Source: Escherichia coli (GTDB lineage: Bacteria; Pseudomonadota; Gammaproteobacteria; Enterobacterales; Enterobacteriaceae). Taken from it: a stretch of DNA of 64,000 bases. How positions within the stretch are numbered: position 1 is the stretch's first letter; each line of letters opens with the position of its first letter. Where the stretch lies: NCBI RefSeq assembly GCF_024700885.2, contig NZ_CP117016.1; one strand, given 5' to 3'. The translations under genes and the position numbers were made by a program. The notes beneath the pieces were generated by a model. It was not told the origin of the DNA and did no database searches. It saw nothing but the letters and a program-made list of their open reading frames with translations. Shown here one piece after another: positions 1 through 18,959 of the stretch.

Positions 1-61
1 CTCCTGCACATTCACCCTTTCTGATTTCCAGCGACGCGGACGCTCGCTCTCACTGCCATTA

Positions 62-403
62 TCAATGGTTGCCACCGTTAGCATTCAGTAACGGTAGTGC
101 CAGCACAATATCCACCAGGGAACGATCAGAAACCGTCGATAAATCACAGACCGGAGGCAGATTATCCGCGCGTTCCGTATCAATAAGCGTTCCGTCCGGG
201 AAACGAACAATCAGACGGGTGGCATTCAACCGTGAAAGCGGTAACAGAGAGTCATCAAACTCTGCAGCCACCACGCCCCATGGATGCGCCAGCCCCATTC
301 TGGCAACGCTGTCTGCCAGATGAACATCCCAGGCAGCCTGCTGCTGAAACTGCTGGGGCATCAGAAAAGCCCCGTCTTCCCATAGTGGGCGATAAATCTT
401 CAT
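62..403 (-). pseudogene. tssK: T6SS baseplate subunit TssK, 5' portion; frame breaks after codon 113 (TGA TAA) while another frame stays open to the window edge
   Basis: N-terminus MKIYRPLWEDGAFLMPQQFQQQ fits the TssK family start; lies 16 nt downstream of tssC on the same strand; the 113-codon length is far short of TssK as I recall it (~445 aa). Confidence 0.5.
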
Positions 404-418
404 TTCCCGACACCTGCC

Positions 419-1963
419 TTACGCTTTTGCCTTCGGCATCTGCGAAACCAGTGACAGGCTGACGTCCATACCTTCTACCTGGAAATGCGGTACGGCGTAG
501 AGTTTCACGCGGAAGAATCCCGGATTGTCTTCGATATCTTCCACCACCACTTTTCCGTCACGCAGCGGATGCGAGGCCTGCAGTTCATCACCCGGATCGG
601 TCATCTCCGTCACCAGTCCCCGGATCCAGTTATTCAGCTCCAGCTCAAGCAGACGGCGATCTTTGGTGGTACCGATATTTTCCCGCTGAATGATCTTCAG
701 GTAATGCGCAATACGGGACAGCAGGAAGATATAGGGAAGACGGGCATTAATACGACTGTTCGCCGTTGCATCCGGCGTATCGTACAGCGCCGGTTTCTGG
801 GCGGAGTTAGCAGAGAAGAAGCAGGCATAATCCCGGTTCTTGTAGTAAGAGAGCGGAATAAAGCCCAGATTCGCGAATTCAAACTCCCGCGTTTCCGGGA
901 TCATCACCTCTGACGGAATTTTGACCTGATTACCGGTTCCCAGATCATACAAATGGATTGGCAAATCCTGCACCGCACCACCGGCCTGAGGCCCACGGAT
1001 CTGAACACACCAGCCGTTGGTGACAAAACTGCGCACCATGTTGGCTGCAAAGGCAAAAGACGCGTTCGTCCAGAGATATTTATGGTGGTCCGGTCCTTTC
1101 ACCTCTTCAACATAGTTAAAGCTGCGGACAGGTACGGTATCCGGGCCATACGGCAGGCGTCCCAGTACACGGGGCATCACCAGGCCAATATAGCGGGCAT
1201 CGTCCGTCTCACGGAAAGCATTCCACTTGATGTACTCGGCACGCTCAAAGTGGTTGCCAATATCCTTGATGGCAGCCACCTCTTCCATGGTTTCTTTCTG
1301 GAAGAACGCCGGGCCAACTGAACCAATAAACGGCATATGTGCAGATGCCGCCACCCGGGAAATATTTTTCAGCAACGCCACGTCCTGTGCAGATGCATCA
1401 AACTCCCAGGCTGAAACCAGGGCGGCAATGGGCTCACCACCCGGCGTGTCATACTCAGCCACATAGGTCTGCAGATAAAGGCCGCTCTGAATAATTTCCG
1501 GCGCATCCTCAAAATCCTGACGCAGATCGTCTTTGGACAGATCCAGCAGCTCAATTTTCACATTACGGCGGAAGTCCGTTTTATCCACCAGGGACTTCAC
1601 GCCCCGCCACAGCGACTCCACTTTCTGAAATTCCGGATGATGAAGCACAGCATCCAGTTGACGGCTGATCTGATAATCAAGCTCTGCAATATGATGGTCA
1701 ATCAGCGCTTTATCGAGTTTTTCCACCTGCGTGCCGGCTTTTGCCAGACACTCCATAAACACCTGCATCCCTGCCGTCAGACGTTCATCTGCAGATGCTT
1801 CTGACATGGCCTGTGGATCCTGCCAGATATCCAGTGCACTCAGGGCAGATACCGGACTCAGGTTAATTTTTTCAAACAGGGAAGCATATACGCTGTCGCC
1901 GGCATGCGCTTCAGATACCACGCTCTCTGCAACGTTCTTTTCTTTCTGTACAGACATCAGCAT
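419..1963 (-). CDS. tssC: T6SS contractile sheath large subunit TssC (VipB)
   Basis: 514-aa ORF directly downstream of tssB, of the size expected for TssC; GAGAG Shine-Dalgarno before the ATG. Confidence 0.8.
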   Translation of the reverse strand: MLMSVQKEKNVAESVVSEAHAGDSVYASLFEKINLSPVSALSALDIWQDPQAMSEASADERLTAGMQVFMECLAKAGTQVEKLDKALIDHHIAELDYQISRQLDAVLHHPEFQKVESLWRGVKSLVDKTDFRRNVKIELLDLSKDDLRQDFEDAPEIIQSGLYLQTYVAEYDTPGGEPIAALVSAWEFDASAQDVALLKNISRVAASAHMPFIGSVGPAFFQKETMEEVAAIKDIGNHFERAEYIKWNAFRETDDARYIGLVMPRVLGRLPYGPDTVPVRSFNYVEEVKGPDHHKYLWTNASFAFAANMVRSFVTNGWCVQIRGPQAGGAVQDLPIHLYDLGTGNQVKIPSEVMIPETREFEFANLGFIPLSYYKNRDYACFFSANSAQKPALYDTPDATANSRINARLPYIFLLSRIAHYLKIIQRENIGTTKDRRLLELELNNWIRGLVTEMTDPGDELQASHPLRDGKVVVEDIEDNPGFFRVKLYAVPHFQVEGMDVSLSLVSQMPKAKA

Positions 1964-1984
1964 TTTCTCTCGTAATCCGTTAAA

Positions 1985-2482
1985 TCACGCCTTTTCCGGC
2001 ACCAGTGCACGCAGTTCATCACGCAGCGTCTGACTCAGTGCCGGGTCACGCAGAATTTTTTCCAGCTCTTTACGGAAAGTCACGTTATCCAGCAGATTGG
2101 CTTTCAGGTCCCGCAGAAGGCTACGCATGGCCAGCATGGCTTTAAGACGGGGAATCTGTCGGGCGACCTGCTCTGGCGTGAAATCGTTCATATTGCGGAA
2201 AGTCAGGCTGATGCTCTCTTCAGAGCCATCACCGGCAAGCGTGTTCTCCACATTCAGATGTACAGACGGGGAGATATCTGCCAGAACATCATTAAAATTG
2301 TTTTTATTAATATCCGTTTTTACACGCTCTGACAGTGGACGCTCTTCCTGTCCGTTACTGAAATCACCGGCAACCAGAAGTTTGAGCGGAAGCTCCACTT
2401 TCTTCTGCCCACCACCCGTATGTAGGTCTAATTTCAGATTTACCCTTGCTTTCGGGATTTCATTCTGAAACGAACTGCTCAT
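1985..2482 (-). CDS. tssB: T6SS contractile sheath small subunit TssB (VipA)
   Basis: Segment KARVNLKLDLHTGGGQKKVELPLKLLVAGDFS is TssB-like; start placed at internal Met (MSSSFQNE) preceded by AGGAGA; ORF track extends to 2506. Confidence 0.8.
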   Translation of the reverse strand: MSSSFQNEIPKARVNLKLDLHTGGGQKKVELPLKLLVAGDFSNGQEERPLSERVKTDINKNNFNDVLADISPSVHLNVENTLAGDGSEESISLTFRNMNDFTPEQVARQIPRLKAMLAMRSLLRDLKANLLDNVTFRKELEKILRDPALSQTLRDELRALVPEKA

Positions 2483-2558
2483 GGCTCTCTCCTGTGAAAC
2501 CTGCATCTAAGGGGTTCCATCACCGCAGATGCCTCCCCTTGTGCACTGATTTAATTTT

Positions 2559-2611
2559 GATCATTATAGGACGAAGATCTGAAAAATCTCAATATGACAG
2601 ATACATCGATC
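2559..2611 (-). promoter_or_regulatory. AT-rich tssB upstream region with three GATC sites and a Fur-box-like half site (GATCATTAT)
   Basis: GATC at 2559, 2576 and 2608, about 80-130 bp upstream of the tssB start; a Fur/Dam switch is reported for the EAEC sci1 T6SS promoter. Confidence 0.3.
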
Positions 2612-2988
2612 GATATAACGCAAATAATCAGGACTTTATTCTATGGAATGTCGCAAAATAATGAATATTCAAAGCTTATAACCATTGTTAATGTAAAAAT
2701 ACAGAAAATTATTCCACAAAACACTTTTGATACAGCCAGTTAACATAAACACTGTATTTTCTTGATTTCAGTCATTGAAAATCACAATGAGTAAAGTTTC
2801 AGCAGCATTGACGTGATTTCTGGAAAGCGGGAAAGATATGGAGGAAGGGCCCAACAAAATGCAATGAAAGAAGGAGTGAGGGGATTTCTAGTAAAAACAG
2901 AAGATTAACAAAACACATCAGGAGGCAGAGACTCCTGATTCAGTGCTACCACATGAAAATTTAGTTAACTGTTACCGTTCTGAAATCT

Positions 2989-3180
2989 ATGTCAGAAGAT
3001 ATTCCATTACCGAAAATCAATCAGCGATACAGAGACGATCATGGTGCGCTTGTCACCGTGACCAGTGTTGAGGAAACCCGGGTGGTGTTTATGCGGGACG
3101 GCTATCCGCATCCCTGCATGCGACCGATGTACAACTTCCTGGGAAAATTCAAACCCGAACCCCGGGAAGAAACAGAATAA
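2989..3180 (+). CDS. small hypothetical protein (63 aa)
   Basis: ORF only; no clear Shine-Dalgarno. Confidence 0.25.
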   Translation: MSEDIPLPKINQRYRDDHGALVTVTSVEETRVVFMRDGYPHPCMRPMYNFLGKFKPEPREETE

Positions 3181-3232
3181 AACGAAATCCCTGCCGGCAA
3201 TCACATTGCCTGATGGCAGCATAATCCACTTA

Positions 3233-3541
3233 TTAATTCTCATCCCCGGAGACAAGCCCTGAAAACCACTCCGGGTGTTCACTGTATGCTGTGTTCAGCG
3301 CATCCCAGGAAACGTTGATATAAAAGCTGTCCTGCAATTTCCGGGTAACCACCTCTGCCAGGCGGTTCCGGTTACCCACCAGTCCGGCATAACCTCTCTC
3401 TGCCAGCCACTCATTCAGTTCATGTTCCAGAGACAGATTGATAATATCGTAATCGGACCTTGCCATTCCCGTTTCCTTAGCACATGTTTTCAGGCACGGG
3501 GATAAAGTATAAAGAATGTCGTACTGCTGCTGCCAGAGCAA
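3233..3541 (-). CDS. hypothetical protein (102 aa; possible internal start at MARSDYD)
   Basis: Last ORF of a co-directional minus-strand gene string 6023 to 3233. Confidence 0.35.
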   Translation of the reverse strand: MLWQQQYDILYTLSPCLKTCAKETGMARSDYDIINLSLEHELNEWLAERGYAGLVGNRNRLAEVVTRKLQDSFYINVSWDALNTAYSEHPEWFSGLVSGDEN

Positions 3542-7648: not shown

Positions 7649-7855
7649 ATGATCACCCCAGTTTCACTGATGGATGACCAGATGGTCGACATGGCATTTA
7701 TCACTCAACTGACCGGCCTGACCGATAAGTGGTTTTACAAACTCATCAAGGATGGTGACTTTCCTGCGCCCATCAAAATGGGCCGCAGCTCCCGATGGCT
7801 GAAAAGCGAAGTGGAAGCCTGGCTGCAGGCGCGTATTGCACAGTCCCGTCCGTAA
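7649..7855 (+). CDS. alpA: AlpA-family prophage transcriptional regulator
   Basis: LTGLTDKWFYKLIKDGDFPAPIKMGRSSRWLKSEVEAWL is the AlpA HTH signature; GGAGGA Shine-Dalgarno before ATG 7649. Confidence 0.8.
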   Translation: MITPVSLMDDQMVDMAFITQLTGLTDKWFYKLIKDGDFPAPIKMGRSSRWLKSEVEAWLQARIAQSRP

Positions 7856-7935
7856 TTCTTAACCGTTCATCTGCAACAGACGCAGTCTCCGGCCTGCCGG
7901 CGGCGTTCTGCTGCCTGTTATCCCCCGTGAGGAAT

Positions 7936-8544
7936 ATGAAAATGAAACCACAGTATCAGACCCGTTACGAGCTGCTCCACGAAAGCTACCAGAAATGGCT
8001 GACCGGCTTCACCCGGCACGCCGTATCCTGGGGCGTGTGTCATCCGAATATCTACTACTTCCATAATCTGACGCCCGGGTGGGTGTCATTCAATGGTGAA
8101 AAACCGGAGATTGCCATCGTACCCCAGAGTCTGCACCGGCTGATTTATGGTCCGGACAAACGGACCACGCCGCCCCTGGATGATGATCTGATAGTGAATT
8201 TATGCACCAGTGAACATCTGCTGGTTCATCATCCGATGCTGGAAGGCATTCTCCTGTCTGAATGTGAACGTCTGAGGCAGCGTTCGCTGGCAAATAAACT
8301 GATCAGCCTCTTCCGTCAGTTTGGTGGCACGGAGTTGCGCCTCAAACTGGTCTGGCTTTGCTGGCTTGATTTAATGACCGGAAACTGCCTTGACGACTGG
8401 ACGGAGAATCTGAAACGGAAATCAGAAAAAGAGCTGGAGGAATGGATCATCAACCGTCAGAAGCAGAGCGCAGCACTGACGGATCTGATGGATCAGTACG
8501 TGCTCCTGGCATACCGCACAACGGTTGACGATAAGCGCACCTGA
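7936..8544 (+). CDS. hypothetical protein (202 aa) downstream of alpA
   Basis: ORF with GTGAGGAA Shine-Dalgarno before ATG 7936 (start MKMKPQYQ). Confidence 0.5.
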   Translation: MKMKPQYQTRYELLHESYQKWLTGFTRHAVSWGVCHPNIYYFHNLTPGWVSFNGEKPEIAIVPQSLHRLIYGPDKRTTPPLDDDLIVNLCTSEHLLVHHPMLEGILLSECERLRQRSLANKLISLFRQFGGTELRLKLVWLCWLDLMTGNCLDDWTENLKRKSEKELEEWIINRQKQSAALTDLMDQYVLLAYRTTVDDKRT

Positions 8545-12453: not shown

Positions 12454-12572
12454 ACACTCTGCCAGGGGAAATGCCTGATTATATTGCATTAACAAACTGA
12501 AAACATGACACAAACCCCTCATACTCCTCCTGTTTCTCTTGCGTGACCGCCTTGTCGTTAATAGAATAAAAC

Positions 12573-12608
12573 GATCGATAAAACAGGTATCGATCGCTAC
12601 TATCGATC
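12573..12608 (+). promoter_or_regulatory. agn43 phase-variation switch: three GATC Dam sites within the OxyR-binding region
   Basis: GATC at 12573, 12592 and 12605 in AACGATCGATAAAACAGGTATCGATCGCTACTATCGATCGTTTATAG, about 220 bp upstream of the flu ATG. Confidence 0.7.
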
Positions 12609-12825
12609 GTTTATAGTGGTTAATGGCCTGCGAAAAGGCAGCTGAATCTCTTCATCATGCAGAACGGAATTGCACACAACGGACTGATACTTCTCTGGCG
12701 GATGAGAGAGGGGAAGCATTTATGTCCGGGAAAAACCACTTTATCTGACCATGCTGTTTTGTACCTGCCGGTATCCACATTTGTGGGTACCGGCTTTTTT
12801 ATTCACCCTCTGTAAGGAAAAGCTG

Positions 12826-15672
12826 ATGAAACGACATCTGAACACCAGCTACAGGCTGGTATGGAATCACATTACGGGTACCCTGGTGGTGGCCTCCGAA
12901 CTGGCCCGCTCACGGGGAAAACGCGCCGGTGTGGCGATTGCGCTGTCTCTTGCTGCTGTCACATCAGTCCCGGCACTGGCTGCTGACACGGTTGTACAGG
13001 CGGGAGAAACCGTGAGCGGCGGAACACTGACAAATCATGACAACCAGATTGTTCTCGGTACGGCCAACGGAATGACCATCAGTACCGGTCTGGAGTATGG
13101 GCCGGATAACGAGGCCAATACCGGCGGGCAATGGGTACAGGATGGCGGCACAGCCAGTAATACCGCCATCAGCAGCGGCGGTCTCCAGTTTGTAGGTGCC
13201 GGGGGAAAGGCTACAGACACAATAATCAATGAAGGAGGCGGACAAAGTCTGAAGGGACTGGCACTGAACACCACGCTGAATGGTGGCGAGCAGTGGATGC
13301 ATGAGGGTGCGATAGCCACAGGAACCGTCATTAATGATAAGGGCTGGCAGGTCGTCAAATCCGGCGCAATGGCAACCGACACGGTTGTGAATACCGGCGC
13401 GGAAGGGGGACCGGATGCAGAAAATGGTGATACCGGGCAGTTTGTTCGCGGAAATGCCGTACGTACCACCATCAATAAAAATGGTCGTCAGATTGTGGCT
13501 GCTGAAGGAACAGCAAATACCACTATGGTTTATGCCGGCGGAGACCAGACTGTACATGGCTACGCGCTGGATACCACACTGAACGGCGGTAACCAGTATG
13601 TGCACAACGGCGGTACAGCGTCTGACACTGTTGTTAACAGTGACGGCTGGCAGGTGGTGAAGGATGGTGCAGTGGCTGAGAATACCACCGTTAATCACAA
13701 GGGCAAACTGCAGGTGAATGCCGGTGGTGTCGCTGTTGATGTTACTCAGAATCAGGGAGGGGCACTGGTTACCAGTACTGCTGCAACGGTTCTTGGCAGC
13801 AACCGTCTGGGCAATTTCGCGGTGGAAAACGGTAAGGCTGACGGCGTGGTTCTGGAATCCGGTGGTCGCCTGGATGTACTGGAGAGCCATTCAGCACAGA
13901 ATACCCTGGTGGATGACGGCGGTACCCTGGCAGTGTCTGCCGGTGGTAAGGCAACAGGTGTCACCATGACATCCGGTGGTGCCCTGATAGCAGACAGTGG
14001 TGCCACTGTTGAGGGTACCAATGCCAGCGGCAAGTTCAGTATTGATGGCATATCCGGTCAGGCCAGCGGCCTGCTGCTGGAAAATGGCGGCAGCTTTACG
14101 GTCAATGCCGGGGGACAAGCCAGCAACACCACGATCGGACATCGTGGAACACTGACGCTGGCTGCCGGGGGAAGTCTGAGTGGCAGAACACAACTCAGTA
14201 AAGGCGCCAGTATGGTACTGAATGGTGATGTGGTCAGTACCGGCGATATTGTTAACGCAGGGGAGATTCGCTTTGATAATCAGACGACACAGGATGCCGT
14301 GCTGAGCCGTGCTGTTGCAAAAGGCGACGCCCCGGTAACGTTCCATAAACTGACCACCAATAACCTCACCGGCCAGGGCGGCACCATCAATATGCGTGTT
14401 CGCCTTGATGGCAGCAATGCCTCTGACCAGCTGGTGATTAATGGTGGTCAGGCAACCGGCAAAACCTGGCTTGCGTTTACAAATGTCGGAAACAGTAACC
14501 TCGGGGTGGCAACCACCGGACAGGGTATCCGGGTTGTGGATGCACAGAATGGTGCCACCACAGAAGAAGGTGCATTTGCCCTGAGCCGCCCGCTTCAGGC
14601 CGGCGCCTTTAACTACACCCTGAACCGTGACAGCGATGAAGACTGGTACCTGCGCAGTGAAAATGCTTATCGTGCTGAAGTCCCCCTGTATGCCTCCATG
14701 CTGACACAGGCAATGGACTATGACCGGATTCTGGCAGGCTCCCGCAGCCATCAGACCGGTGTAAACGGTGAAAATAACAGCGTCCGTCTCAGCATTCAGG
14801 GCGGTCATCTCGGTCACGATAACAACGGCGGTATTGCCCGTGGAGCCACGCCGGAAAGCAGCGGCAGCTATGGCTTCGTCCGTCTGGAGGGTGACCTGCT
14901 CAGAACAGAGGTCGCCGGTATGTCTGTGACCGCGGGGGTATATGGTGCTGCTGGCCATTCTTCCGTTGATGTTAAGGATGATGACGGTTCCCGCGCCGGC
15001 ACGGTCCGGGATGATGCCGGCAGCCTGGGCGGATACCTGAATCTGGTACACACGTCCTCCGGCCTGTGGGCTGACATTGTGGCACAGGGAACCCGCCACA
15101 GCATGAAAGCGTCATCGGACAATAACAACTTCCGCGCCCGGGGCCGGGGCTGGCTGGGCTCACTGGAAACCGGTCTGCCCTTCAGTATCACTGACAACCT
15201 GATGCTGGAGCCACAACTGCAGTACACCTGGCAGGGGCTCTCCCTGGATGACGGCCAGGATAACGCCGGTTATGTGAAGTTCGGGCATGGCAGTACACAA
15301 CATGTGCGTGCCGGCTTCCGTCTGGGCAGCCACAACGATATGACCTTTGGCGAAGGCACCTCATCCCGTGACACCCTGCGCGACAGTACAAAACACCGTG
15401 TGAGTGAACTGCCGGTGAACTGGTGGGTACAGCCTTCTGTTATCCGCACTTTCAGCTCCCGGGGTGACATGAGCATGGGTACAGCCGCCGCCAGCAGTAA
15501 CATGACGTTCTCACCGTCCCGGAATGGCACGTCACTGGACCTGCAGGCCGGACTGGAAGCCCGTGTCCGGGAAAATATCACCCTGGGCGTTCAGGCCGGT
15601 TATGCCCACAGCGTCAGCGGCAGCAGCGCTGAAGGCTATAACGGTCAGGCCACGCTGAGTGTGACCTTCTGA
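12826..15672 (+). CDS. flu: antigen 43 self-associating autotransporter adhesin
   Basis: MKRHLNTSYRLVWNHITGTLVVASELARSRGKRAGVAIALSLAAVTSVPALAADTVV signal region and near-identical C-terminal translocator; AAGGAAAAG before ATG. Confidence 0.9.
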   Translation: MKRHLNTSYRLVWNHITGTLVVASELARSRGKRAGVAIALSLAAVTSVPALAADTVVQAGETVSGGTLTNHDNQIVLGTANGMTISTGLEYGPDNEANTGGQWVQDGGTASNTAISSGGLQFVGAGGKATDTIINEGGGQSLKGLALNTTLNGGEQWMHEGAIATGTVINDKGWQVVKSGAMATDTVVNTGAEGGPDAENGDTGQFVRGNAVRTTINKNGRQIVAAEGTANTTMVYAGGDQTVHGYALDTTLNGGNQYVHNGGTASDTVVNSDGWQVVKDGAVAENTTVNHKGKLQVNAGGVAVDVTQNQGGALVTSTAATVLGSNRLGNFAVENGKADGVVLESGGRLDVLESHSAQNTLVDDGGTLAVSAGGKATGVTMTSGGALIADSGATVEGTNASGKFSIDGISGQASGLLLENGGSFTVNAGGQASNTTIGHRGTLTLAAGGSLSGRTQLSKGASMVLNGDVVSTGDIVNAGEIRFDNQTTQDAVLSRAVAKGDAPVTFHKLTTNNLTGQGGTINMRVRLDGSNASDQLVINGGQATGKTWLAFTNVGNSNLGVATTGQGIRVVDAQNGATTEEGAFALSRPLQAGAFNYTLNRDSDEDWYLRSENAYRAEVPLYASMLTQAMDYDRILAGSRSHQTGVNGENNSVRLSIQGGHLGHDNNGGIARGATPESSGSYGFVRLEGDLLRTEVAGMSVTAGVYGAAGHSSVDVKDDDGSRAGTVRDDAGSLGGYLNLVHTSSGLWADIVAQGTRHSMKASSDNNNFRARGRGWLGSLETGLPFSITDNLMLEPQLQYTWQGLSLDDGQDNAGYVKFGHGSTQHVRAGFRLGSHNDMTFGEGTSSRDTLRDSTKHRVSELPVNWWVQPSVIRTFSSRGDMSMGTAAASSNMTFSPSRNGTSLDLQAGLEARVRENITLGVQAGYAHSVSGSSAEGYNGQATLSVTF

Positions 15673-15792
15673 CAGAACCATCGCCTCTCTGTGGTCCCGG
15701 TCATCATGATCGGGACCCGGACCGGCGCAACGGATATTCAACGCCACATTCGCTGGCATTAACAATAACATGATATTCATCACGGAGTGACT

Positions 15793-18309
15793 ATGTTACA
15801 GATAGTCGGCGCGCTGATCCTGCTGATCGCAGGATTTGCCATTCTTCGCCTTTTGTTCAGAGCATTAATCAGCACGGCTTCTGCGCTGGCAGGGCTCATA
15901 TTGCTGTGTCTGTTCGGCCCGGCCTTACTGGCTGGCTATATCACCGAACGCATAACCCGGTTGTTCCATATTCGCTGGCTGGCAGGCGTATTTCTGACGA
16001 TTGCCGGAATGATCATCAGCTTCATGTGGGGACTTGATGGTAAACATATCGCGCTGGAGGCTCACACCTTTGACTCTGTGAAATTTATTCTGACCACCGC
16101 TCTCGCCGGTGGTCTGCTGGCTGTTCCCCTGCAGATCAAAAACATTCAGCAGAACGGGATCACACCAGAAGATATCAGCAAGGAAATTAACGGGTATTAC
16201 TGCTGTTTTTATACTGCCTTTTTCCTTATGGCGTGTTCTGCATGCGCACCATTGATCGCGTTACAGTACGATATTTCACCGTCACTGATGTGGTGGGGCG
16301 GGTTGTTGTACTGGCTGGCTGCATTAGTGACGCTGCTATGGGCGGCCAGCCAAATCCAGGCGCTGAAAAAACTGACCTGTGCCATCAGCCAGACACTGGA
16401 AGAACAACCGGTGCTCAACAGTAAATCGTGGCTGACCAGTTTGCAAAACGATTACAGCCTTCCTGACTCACTGACGGAGCGCATCTGGCTGACGCTCATT
16501 TCTCAACGGATTTCCCGGGGAGAGCTGAGGGAATTTGAACTGGCAGACGGAAACTGGTTACTGAACAATGCCTGGTATGAAAGAAACATGGCAGGGTTTA
16601 ACGAACAGTTGAAAGAGAACCTGTCATTCACACCTGATGAACTGAAAACGCTCTTCCGGAACCGCCTGAATTTATCACCGGAAGCGAATGACGATTTTCT
16701 CGATCGTTGCCTGGACGGCGGTGACTGGTATCCCTTTTCAGAAGGTCGCCGTTTTGTATCATTCCATCACGTGGATGAGCTTCGTATCTGTGCCTCCTGC
16801 GGGCTGACAGAAGTACATCATGCCCCGGAAAATCATAAGCCGGATCCGGAATGGTACTGCTCCTCTCTTTGTCGCGAAACAGAAACACTGTGTCAGGAAA
16901 TTTATGAACGCCCTTACAACAGCTTTATTTCCGATGCAACGGCGAATGGTCTGATTCTCATGAAACTGCCGGAAACCTGGAGTACAAATGAGAAAATGTT
17001 TGCTTCCGGAGGGCAGGGACATGGGTTTGCCGCTGAACGGGGAAACCATATTGTCGACAGAGTCCGTCTGAAAAACGCACGGATCCTCGGTGATAATAAT
17101 GCCAGAAATGGAGCAGACAGACTGGTCAGCGGAACAGAAATCCAGACGAAATATTGTTCAACTGCAGCCCGTAGCGTCGGTGCGGCATTCGACGGACAAA
17201 ACGGACAGTATCGTTACATGGGAAATAATGGCCCCATGCAACTGGAAGTCCCCCGTGATCAGTATGCCGGCGCTGTTGAAACCATGAGGAATAAGATCCG
17301 CGAAGGTAAAGTACCCGGTGTAACCGATCCCGCAGAAGCATCCCGGCTGATTCGTCGGGGACATCTGACTTATACTCAGGCCCGTAATATCACCCGGTTC
17401 GGGACCATCGAATCGGTCACTTATGATATTGCCGAGGGTTCGGTTGTCAGTCTGGCGGCCGGAGGGATCAGTTTTGCCCTGACGGCATCGGTCTTCTGGC
17501 TCAGCACCGGCGATCGCGATGCTGCCCTGCAGACAGCTGCTGTCCAGGCAGGAAAAACCTTCACCCGCACACTGGCTGTCTACGTCACAACCCAGCAACT
17601 CCACCGGCTCAGTGTTGTTCAGGGTATGCTGAAGCACATTGATTTTTCGACTGCCAGCCCGGCTGTTCGACTGGCTCTTCAGAAGGGGACCGGTGCAGGA
17701 AATATCAGTGCCCTGAACAAAGTGATGAAGGGTACGCTGGTGACATCTCTGGCACTGGTAGCTGTCACAACCGGCCCTGACATGATCAAAATGTTGCGGG
17801 GACGGATCTCCGGTACGCAGTTCATCAGGAATCTTGCCGTGGCATCTTCCGGTGTGGCAGGTGGTGCTGTCGGGTCAGTGGCGGGCGGAATACTGTTCAG
17901 TCCACTGGGACCATTTGGTGCACTGACAGGGCGTGTGGTTGGCGGTGTTCTGGGGGGAATGATTGCCTCCGCTGTATCAGGAAAAATTGCCGGAGCGCTG
18001 GTTGAAGAAGATCGCGTCAAAATTCTGGCAATGATTCAGGAGCAGGTGACATGGCTTGCCGGCAGTTTCCTGCTGACCGGACATGAGATTGAAAATCTGA
18101 ACGAGAATCTGGCCCGTGTTATCGATCAGAATGCTCTGGAGATCATTTTCGCCGCCGGTATACAACAACGGGCCGCGACCAATATGTTAATCAAACCACT
18201 GGTGGTCAGTATCATCAGGCAACGCCCCGTCATGGAATATGATGCATCCCATCTCGGCAATATGGTTAACCGACTGGAAGAAGCATTACCCCCGGAGTTA
18301 CCGGCATAA
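15793..18309 (+). CDS. yeeR: YeeR-like inner membrane protein (838 aa) with C-terminal glycine-zipper segment
   Basis: Position immediately after flu; N-terminal TM helices; GGAVGSVAGGILFSPLGPFGALTGRVVGGVLGGMIASAVSG near C-terminus. Confidence 0.55.
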   Translation: MLQIVGALILLIAGFAILRLLFRALISTASALAGLILLCLFGPALLAGYITERITRLFHIRWLAGVFLTIAGMIISFMWGLDGKHIALEAHTFDSVKFILTTALAGGLLAVPLQIKNIQQNGITPEDISKEINGYYCCFYTAFFLMACSACAPLIALQYDISPSLMWWGGLLYWLAALVTLLWAASQIQALKKLTCAISQTLEEQPVLNSKSWLTSLQNDYSLPDSLTERIWLTLISQRISRGELREFELADGNWLLNNAWYERNMAGFNEQLKENLSFTPDELKTLFRNRLNLSPEANDDFLDRCLDGGDWYPFSEGRRFVSFHHVDELRICASCGLTEVHHAPENHKPDPEWYCSSLCRETETLCQEIYERPYNSFISDATANGLILMKLPETWSTNEKMFASGGQGHGFAAERGNHIVDRVRLKNARILGDNNARNGADRLVSGTEIQTKYCSTAARSVGAAFDGQNGQYRYMGNNGPMQLEVPRDQYAGAVETMRNKIREGKVPGVTDPAEASRLIRRGHLTYTQARNITRFGTIESVTYDIAEGSVVSLAAGGISFALTASVFWLSTGDRDAALQTAAVQAGKTFTRTLAVYVTTQQLHRLSVVQGMLKHIDFSTASPAVRLALQKGTGAGNISALNKVMKGTLVTSLALVAVTTGPDMIKMLRGRISGTQFIRNLAVASSGVAGGAVGSVAGGILFSPLGPFGALTGRVVGGVLGGMIASAVSGKIAGALVEEDRVKILAMIQEQVTWLAGSFLLTGHEIENLNENLARVIDQNALEIIFAAGIQQRAATNMLIKPLVVSIIRQRPVMEYDASHLGNMVNRLEEALPPELPA

Positions 18310-18384
18310 CGGCTATTCTGCGCCTTTTACGCTTTATCACCTGATTTGTCAGTGTCATCGTCATGACTCAGAGAGGTAAATACC

Positions 18385-18840
18385 ATGATTCACCTGTTCA
18401 AAACCTGCATGATTACCGCCTTCATTCTGGGGTTAACGTGGTCTGCCCCACTCCGGGCACAGGATCAACGTTACATCAGTATACGCAATACAGATACGAT
18501 ATGGCTCCCGGGAAATATTTGTGCTTACCAGTTCCGGCTGGATAATGGCGGAAACGATGAAGGATTTGGCCCCCTCACCATCACTCTGCAACTCAAAGAC
18601 AAATATGGTCAGACGCTGGTGACCAGAAAAATGGAAACGGAAGCTTTTGGTGACAGTAATGCCACGCGAACCACAGACGCATTTCTGGAAACGGAGTGCG
18701 TGGAAAATGTCGCCACAACCGAAATCATCAAAGCAACTGAAGAAAGTAACGGCCATCGTGTCAGTCTGCCGTTATCGGTTTTCAATCCCCAGGACTACCA
18801 TCCACTGCTGATTACCGTTTCCGGAAAAAACGTTAACTGA
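18385..18840 (+). CDS. hypothetical secreted protein (151 aa, N-terminal signal peptide)
   Basis: GAGAGG Shine-Dalgarno; hydrophobic N-terminus ending APLRAQD. Confidence 0.5.
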   Translation: MIHLFKTCMITAFILGLTWSAPLRAQDQRYISIRNTDTIWLPGNICAYQFRLDNGGNDEGFGPLTITLQLKDKYGQTLVTRKMETEAFGDSNATRTTDAFLETECVENVATTEIIKATEESNGHRVSLPLSVFNPQDYHPLLITVSGKNVN

Positions 18841-18865
18841 TCCCTGAAGTCAGTTTCATGCTTCA

Positions 18866-18897
18866 GCCTCTGTCACAACGCGTGGCAGAGGCTTTTT
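18866..18897 (+). terminator. Rho-independent terminator (GCCTCTG stem, 13-nt loop, T5)
   Basis: GCCTCTGtcacaacgcgtggCAGAGGCTTTTT immediately after the 151-aa gene. Confidence 0.6.
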
Positions 18898-18959
18898 ATT
18901 TATCAGGAGAAAACAGATATGCGTAAGCGTGCAGCAAGAACCGTATTGACGGGGATGTG

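Follow-up and report, generated by a model that had tools for sequence, protein, structure and literature searches.

An Escherichia coli T6SS-1 promoter region matching the published Fur/Dam switch Psci1, with similar sequences upstream of class IV cdi loci

The closest described system is the Fur/Dam switch at Psci1, the promoter of the sci1 T6SS gene cluster of EAEC. In EAEC 17-2, Fe-Fur binds two boxes, F1 and F2, as seen by FURTA and by EMSA, where two shifted species appeared, and lowers the binding of RNA polymerase (Brunet et al. 2011, PLoS Genet, PMC3145626). The proximal box, which overlaps the -10 hexamer, matches the Fur consensus at 13/19 positions and the distal box at 11/19, while the -35 and -10 hexamers themselves are BProm predictions and were called 'putative' (PMC3145626). 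Fur shields GATC-I from Dam in vitro and in vivo and leaves GATC-II and GATC-III unshielded, GATC-I gets methylated in a fur mutant or in the presence of dipyridyl, and methylation of F1 lowers its affinity for Fur; in these methylation assays the promoter was carried on a plasmid (PMC3145626). More recently, chromosomal point mutants of F1, F2 and G1 to G3 (GATC-I to GATC-III) were found to shift the ON and OFF populations (Taillefer et al. 2026, PLoS Biol, PMC13262931). Under iron limitation, EAEC displays about 60% ON and 40% OFF, a state which is heritable and reversible, whereas F-box mutants, notably those of F2, are uniformly ON even with iron, and the G3 and G1-2-3 mutants are uniformly OFF (PMC13262931). 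Of the mutants of EAEC 17-2, those in fur are locked ON and those in dam are locked OFF. No mapped transcription start for Psci1 was found in the 2011 and 2026 papers.

Three other switches offer points of comparison. P4532, an internal sci1 promoter in the same gene cluster, also relies on Fur/Dam competition at the -10, where a Fur box and a GATC overlap this element (Brunet et al. 2020, J Bacteriol, as described in PMC13262931 and PMC11963381). It is, however, a separate promoter deeper in the cluster, outside the region studied here, which ends within tssK. The agn43 (flu) switch shares with Psci1 three clustered GATC in a repressor operator where repressor binding and Dam methylation are mutually exclusive, but its repressor is OxyR and not Fur, it has no iron input, and it shows classic stochastic phase variation. 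In the Lrp/Dam switch of pap, a heritable ON/OFF state likewise arises from a DNA-binding protein set against Dam at GATC sites, although there are two GATC about 100 bp apart, the proteins are Lrp/PapI, and the outcome is activation rather than simple repression.

The DNA analysed here is a stretch of 64,000 nucleotides from E. coli (the window), whose features are listed in Table 1. The tssB gene lies on the minus strand, so its upstream side is that of the higher coordinates. Its product of 165 aa has the same sequence as TssB of EAEC 042, and residues 1-341 of TssC are also the same as in that strain. The RefSeq start of tssB (ATG at 2482) was used, which has an AGGAGAG ribosome-binding site 6 nt ahead of it. 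A second in-frame ATG is present upstream, at 2506, and it is for this reason that the region described in an earlier note on this DNA began at 2507. Between tssB and the divergent DUF4222 gene is an AT-rich spacer of 506 bp (2483-2988), with a GC content of 0.37 against 0.49 for the whole window.

The earlier note had proposed a candidate Fur/Dam switch in this spacer, and the elements that it named are all in place. The three GATC sites that it put within about 50 bp of an AT-rich stretch just upstream of tssB are found at 2559, 2576 and 2608, with 53 nt from the first to the last base (17 nt between G1 and G2 and 32 nt between G2 and G3). Its AT-rich stretch has a GC content of 0.34 across 2507-2700, compared with the same 0.49. 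The GATC that it described as overlapping a Fur-box-like half site is the one at 2559, located in TGATCATTATA, which falls inside a 19-mer (2550-2568) with 13/19 matches to the Fur consensus used for scoring, GATAATGATAATCATTATC. As to its statement that the arrangement was like that of sci1, it erred on the side of caution: primers, restriction map and overall identity all point to the sci1 promoter itself, as detailed below.

Table 1. Features discussed in the text (window coordinates, except for the last two lines)
Feature	Position	Strand	Remarks
tssK, 5' part, third sci1 gene	1..403	-	Frameshifted (extra T at 66; RefSeq flag)
tssC, sheath large subunit	419..1963	-	514-aa ORF; WP_000930191.1 in identical records
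tssB / sciH, T6SS sheath small subunit, first sci1 gene	1985..2482	-	Pfam T6SS_VipA, 4.2e-52
Counterpart of the Psci1 fragment (596 bp) that Brunet et al. 2011 cloned and used in their assays	2465..3060	-	Primers, restriction map
Predicted 5' untranslated leader of tssB	2483..2556	-	About 74 nt; start inferred from the -10
Proximal Fur box F1 (fur1)	2550..2568	-	TATAATGATCAAAATTAAA; 13/19 to Fur consensus
GATC-I / G1	2559..2562		In BclI site TGATCA (2558-2563), 3' of the -10, inside F1
Predicted -10 hexamer TATAAT	2563..2568	-	Promoter scan
GATC-II / G2	2576..2579		In AGATCT (BglII), overlapped by Hpy188I TCTGA; in the -35/-10 spacer
Predicted -35 hexamer TTGAGA	2587..2592	-	Promoter scan
GATC-III / G3	2608..2611		In ATCGATCGAT, cut by PvuI and BspDI; upstream of the -35
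Distal Fur box F2 (fur2)	2614..2632	-	CCTGATTATTTGCGTTATA; 10/19; upstream of the -35
DUF4222 protein, 63 aa, divergent neighbour, first gene of the adjacent island	2989..3180	+	Pfam DUF4222, 5e-23; annotation
Distal GATC ('GATC-dis')	3037..3040		Within the DUF4222 gene, 429 nt from G3
IS102/IsrC match	12571-12807	+	Rfam, 72.5 bits as IS102 RNA
Ag43/Cah gene	~12825-15671	+	
JUMPstart element	46243-46281	-	Rfam, 58.5 bits; kps capsule region
C0719 sRNA	61056-61277	+	Rfam, 299 bits; sslE/gsp end of the window by coordinate mapping
cdi-linked region, strain JNE141411	extract 75-2620		
cdi-linked region, strain 158274-3	extract 15490-27749, cassette at about 16000-16360		

The primers with which Psci1 was cloned from EAEC 17-2 (Brunet et al. 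2011, Table S1, PMC3145626) match the window perfectly, Prom sci1-5 at 25/25 positions (3024-3048) and Prom sci1-3 at 27/27 (2465-2491). Figure S1 of the same paper places GATC at 22, 451, 483 and 500 of the 596-bp fragment and assigns PvuI/BspDI, BglII/Hpy188I and BclI to the three proximal sites (PMC3145626). The window reproduces this map, with spacings of 429, 32 and 17 nt, the enzyme sites and two distal Hpy188I sites. The Fur-box oligonucleotides of Table S1 (PMC3145626) were compared with window positions 2546-2571 (proximal) and 2611-2635 (distal): F1 is identical to the cloned box and F2 matches the published oligonucleotide at 24/25 positions. The oligonucleotide names in that table are reversed with respect to the text of the paper, 'Bfur2' being the proximal GATC-I box and 'Bfur1' the distal one; the numbering used here follows the text, in which fur1 (F1) is proximal.

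An alignment with the sci1 promoter, which the earlier note had put forward as a check, gave the same picture. Among 5,426 complete E. coli genomes, a 561-bp query for the intergenic region was 99.5% identical to EAEC 042, 99.6% to EAEC 55989 and 99.5% to O104:H4, and the longer segment 940-4500 (3,561 bp) was 99.89% identical to EAEC 042. Locus, tssB/sciH, -35, -10, F1, G1 to G3 and distal GATC are the same as at EAEC Psci1, with identical spacing. The differences are three SNPs in the 561 bp relative to EAEC 042 and two relative to 55989; moreover, unlike in EAEC 042, tssK is frameshifted and the island adjoins a kps/gsp region. Two strains are noted here as close matches: E. coli MLI114, from human stool in Mali (NZ_CP117013.1, ~798504-862503, reverse strand), is 100% identical over the two compared stretches, window 2440-3000 and 24000-48000, and strain BEC1-S17 shows 99.94% identity across window 1-3462. 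In BEC1-S17, the cluster reads tssB-tssC-tssK-tssL-OmpA family protein-hcp-tssH-...-vgrG-tle1-tli1-PAAR-ImcF-related protein, which, judged by the predicted products, is the sci1 organisation, with Tle1-EAEC and Tli1-EAEC.

From this correspondence, window positions 2546-2635 almost certainly represent the sigma-70 promoter Psci1 of the T6SS-1 (sci1) cluster of E. coli, together with its published Fur/Dam switch. That switch is already known and is not a new candidate. A published regulatory element was thus correctly recognised from raw sequence, and the finding adds nothing to what is known of T6SS regulation itself. Only three points go beyond the literature: a SNP in F2 that is specific to the strain, the frameshift of tssK and the copies linked to cdi loci.

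The promoter scan called TTGAGA-18-TATAAT at 2592..2563, with 11/12 matches to consensus, as predicted sigma-70 elements. F1 overlaps the perfect -10 hexamer, and on the tssB strand TATAAT comes first, followed by GATC. The mechanism described in EAEC would presumably be the same in this strain, whose F2 has one consensus match fewer and whose tssK is frameshifted. In the presence of iron, Fe-Fur would occupy F2, upstream of the -35, as well as F1, over the -10; the bound Fur would keep RNA polymerase out and screen GATC-I from Dam, resulting in the OFF state. Under iron limitation, Fur would depart, tssB-tssC-tssK and the downstream genes would be transcribed, and GATC-I would be methylated by Dam. 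This methylation would reduce the affinity of Fur for F1, and the ON state would last until replication yields hemimethylated DNA. F2 and GATC-III together would determine the ON/OFF ratio of the population.

AT-rich, horizontally acquired islands can be targets of nucleoid-protein silencing. With a GC content of 0.30-0.37 against 0.49 for the window, and in an island context, the region could be dominated by another factor, for instance such silencing, with Fur and Dam playing a secondary part. We consider this very unlikely, as the F-box mutants of EAEC are constitutively ON even with iron. Moreover, complete derepression in fur mutants, whatever the state of the nucleoid proteins, has for the most part been described already. 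The Fur/Dam switch is therefore the reading retained for this promoter.

A few further observations concern the surroundings of the switch. The 77-nt leader folds with a predicted energy of -22.4 kcal/mol. On the tssB strand, a terminator-like hairpin is found at 2917-2939 (minus strand), some 325 bp before the -35 of sci1, with an 8-bp stem, ATCAGGAG...CTCCTGAT, followed by GTGTTTTGTT. Its segment TCCTGATGTG is unchanged across alleles. This hairpin might shield Psci1 from read-through. An Rfam scan of the whole window gave no match within 2400-3100. A tRNA scan of the window found no tRNA genes, and therefore the insertion site of the island lies outside the window.

Could the three GATC and the weak Fur-like 19-mer simply have met by chance in an AT-rich spacer, with no regulatory role? 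Such motifs are frequent in the window. It holds six GATC triples within 53 nt, whereas dinucleotide shuffles give 3.0 +/- 1.8 and attain six in 6.5% of cases, and a triple is present in 3.2% of the shuffles of the 506-bp intergenic region. It also holds 34 distinct Fur-like sites with at least 13/19 matches, six of them with a GATC inside. The best Fur match of all (GATACTGATAATCATTGCC, 16/19, 51727-51745) is intragenic: it falls in an ORF belonging to the type II secretion (gsp) region, probably by chance, and illustrates the poor specificity of consensus scanning. The above-chance status of the GATC/Fur pattern is thus weakly supported by statistics. GATC clustering, being marginal, was set aside as evidence, and so was the Fur consensus scan, which does not discriminate. 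The significance of the pattern comes instead from its identity with an experimentally characterised promoter. Fur binding, protection from methylation and point-mutant phenotypes have all been demonstrated on this promoter sequence in EAEC, and the core is unchanged across diverged alleles. Chance co-occurrence is in practice refuted by what EMSA, FURTA and mutants have already shown for the identical sequence, and we regard it as exceedingly improbable.

Other clusters of three or four GATC within 53 nt are located at 8445-8494, inside a 249-aa ORF (7795-8544), and at 30755-30790 and 56634-56675. Three GATC are also present at 12573-12608 (cgttaatagaataaaacGATCgataaaacaggtatcGATCgctactatcGATCg), roughly 220-250 bp ahead of the start codon of the Ag43 gene and 10 kb from Psci1. 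We take this trio to be the classic agn43 OxyR/Dam operator, which would make it a second Dam-dependent switch in the window.

Nine E. coli alleles, 78-100% identical to the window, were aligned. Within the promoter, no invariant stretch is longer than the 19-nt CTATAATGATCAAAATTAA (2569-2551), which comprises the -10, F1 and G1; it ties for the longest in the whole alignment with a second 19-nt run at 2960-2978, beside the DUF4222 gene. G3 is invariant in the nine alleles and G2 is missing only from one degenerate allele. The -10/F1/G1 core stays unchanged, with G2 and G3 in register, even in alleles whose overall identity is only about 78-89%. F2, by comparison, is well matched only in the EAEC-type allele, and scores 7-8/19 in the T6SS-1 alleles of MEW, ETEC O6:H16 and APEC20/16 (about 88% identical). 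In these MEW, ETEC and APEC alleles, a fourth GATC (AGATCT), at -66 relative to the -10, replaces the 5' half of F2, and it is also found in the cdi-linked alleles of JNE141411 and 158274-3. A promoter with this fourth GATC may have a different ON/OFF behaviour.

To look for the switch in other genera, 100,044 species genomes were searched for exact copies of the 18-nt F1/-10 core, and 53 matches were returned. All but one come from organisms that are unrelated and mostly uncultured, and have the look of AT-rich 18-mers matching by chance. The remaining match, at a contig end of E. albertii, belongs to a degenerate allele of the 95_0274 type without G2 and G3. The scan of the 100,044 genomes thus gave no evidence of the switch in other genera, although an exact-match search would miss diverged versions.

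In about 1,165 further E. coli records, the region running from the DUF4222 gene to F1 is present, with an identity of about 78%, whereas tssB is absent. In the copies linked to cdi loci, homology with the window breaks off shortly after F1, close to the predicted transcription start. The cassette of strains JNE141411 and 158274-3 is followed by an uninterrupted ORF for a 579-aa ShlB/POTRA transporter, an HlyC-family acyltransferase, a 2,978-aa hemagglutinin-repeat protein and a small ORF. By the nature of their predicted products, these genes match the cdiB-cdiC-cdiA-cdiI organisation of class IV CDI (PMC8510554). At least 80% of the cassette-cdi junction is present in 1,097 genomes, and an Ag43-type island is found on the other flank of the cdi-linked cassette too. 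In the cdi-linked copies, F1, the -10 and G1 are identical to those of the window, and G2 and G3 are in register. A literature search for Fur or Dam control of cdiB or class IV cdi loci found no report; one 2026 transcriptome paper merely remarks on conserved genes upstream of cdiB.

These copies bear on another explanation, namely that the cassette is a module at the edge of DUF4222/Ag43-type islands, which also heads class IV cdi operons and of which T6SS-1 is one of two cargoes. The number of tssB-less records, the class IV gene order after F1, the widespread junction and the shared F1, -10, G1 and GATC register all speak for such a module. On the other hand, the -35 of the cdi-linked copies is poorer (TTGCTG, 3/6, not called by the promoter scan) and their F2 is weak (8-9/19). 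Furthermore, most of these copies precede a cdiB that is truncated or that an IS element cuts off from the cassette. We consider the module quite possible, though somewhat short of probable. It is compatible with function of the window's own copy as Psci1. The sequence comparison suggests a lead rather than a result as far as the cdi-linked cassette is concerned.

The three SNPs that distinguish the window from EAEC 042 also deserve attention. At 2619, the window has a G where EAEC 17-2 (from the oligonucleotides), 042, 55989 and O104:H4 have an A. This G lies in the CATTAT core of F2, which drops from 11/19 to 10/19, and it adjoins the triplet changed from TTA to GGG in the engineered F2 knock-out (PMC13262931). 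At 2596, just upstream of the -35, there is a C instead of the T of 042 and 17-2, and at 2509, in the leader, a T instead of a G. With respect to tssK, a +1 insertion (an extra T) at window 66 relative to BEC1-S17 ends the frame after about 113 of 445 codons, and RefSeq marks the tssK of MLI114 as a frameshifted pseudogene. Owing to this frameshift, the sci1 operon (T6SS-1) of the present strain may be non-functional, and the switch may control a broken operon.

It follows that the switch might be a relic or might be retuned, that is, its operon would be disabled through tssK and/or its set-point shifted by the G at 2619 and the C at 2596. The truncation of TssK at about 113 aa and the RefSeq pseudogene call agree with this idea. 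So does the weaker F2, inactivation of which makes EAEC constitutively ON (PMC13262931), as does the finding that only three of 41 records at least 99% identical to the window, among the 5,426 complete genomes, match it exactly. Yet the frameshift could be an assembly error, although it is outside any homopolymer, a single A-to-G change may leave the affinity of Fur measurably unaltered, and a G at the position of 2619 is common among other T6SS-1 alleles. A relic or retuned switch is therefore rather unlikely, and Psci1 with its published Fur/Dam switch is still the preferred identification of the region.

In a broader reading, which we advance tentatively as one possibility suggested by the sequence comparisons, a portable, island-borne Fur/Dam cassette would be shared by T6SS-1 and class IV cdi loci or their remnants (about 1,100 genomes), variants of F2 would tune the fraction of ON cells, and the switch of the window may outlive its tssK-inactivated operon. 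The variants meant are the G or A at 2619, or the fourth GATC that replaces F2 in ETEC, APEC and some cdi-linked alleles. That natural promoter variants could tune the ON/OFF ratio was proposed by the authors of the 2026 study (PMC13262931). Because that study showed that F2 and G3 set this ratio, the natural variants at F2 and around G3 are ready-made alleles for testing selection on promoter architecture. If the portable cassette is confirmed, two contact-dependent antibacterial weapons of E. coli would be under a single iron- and methylation-gated ON/OFF switch.
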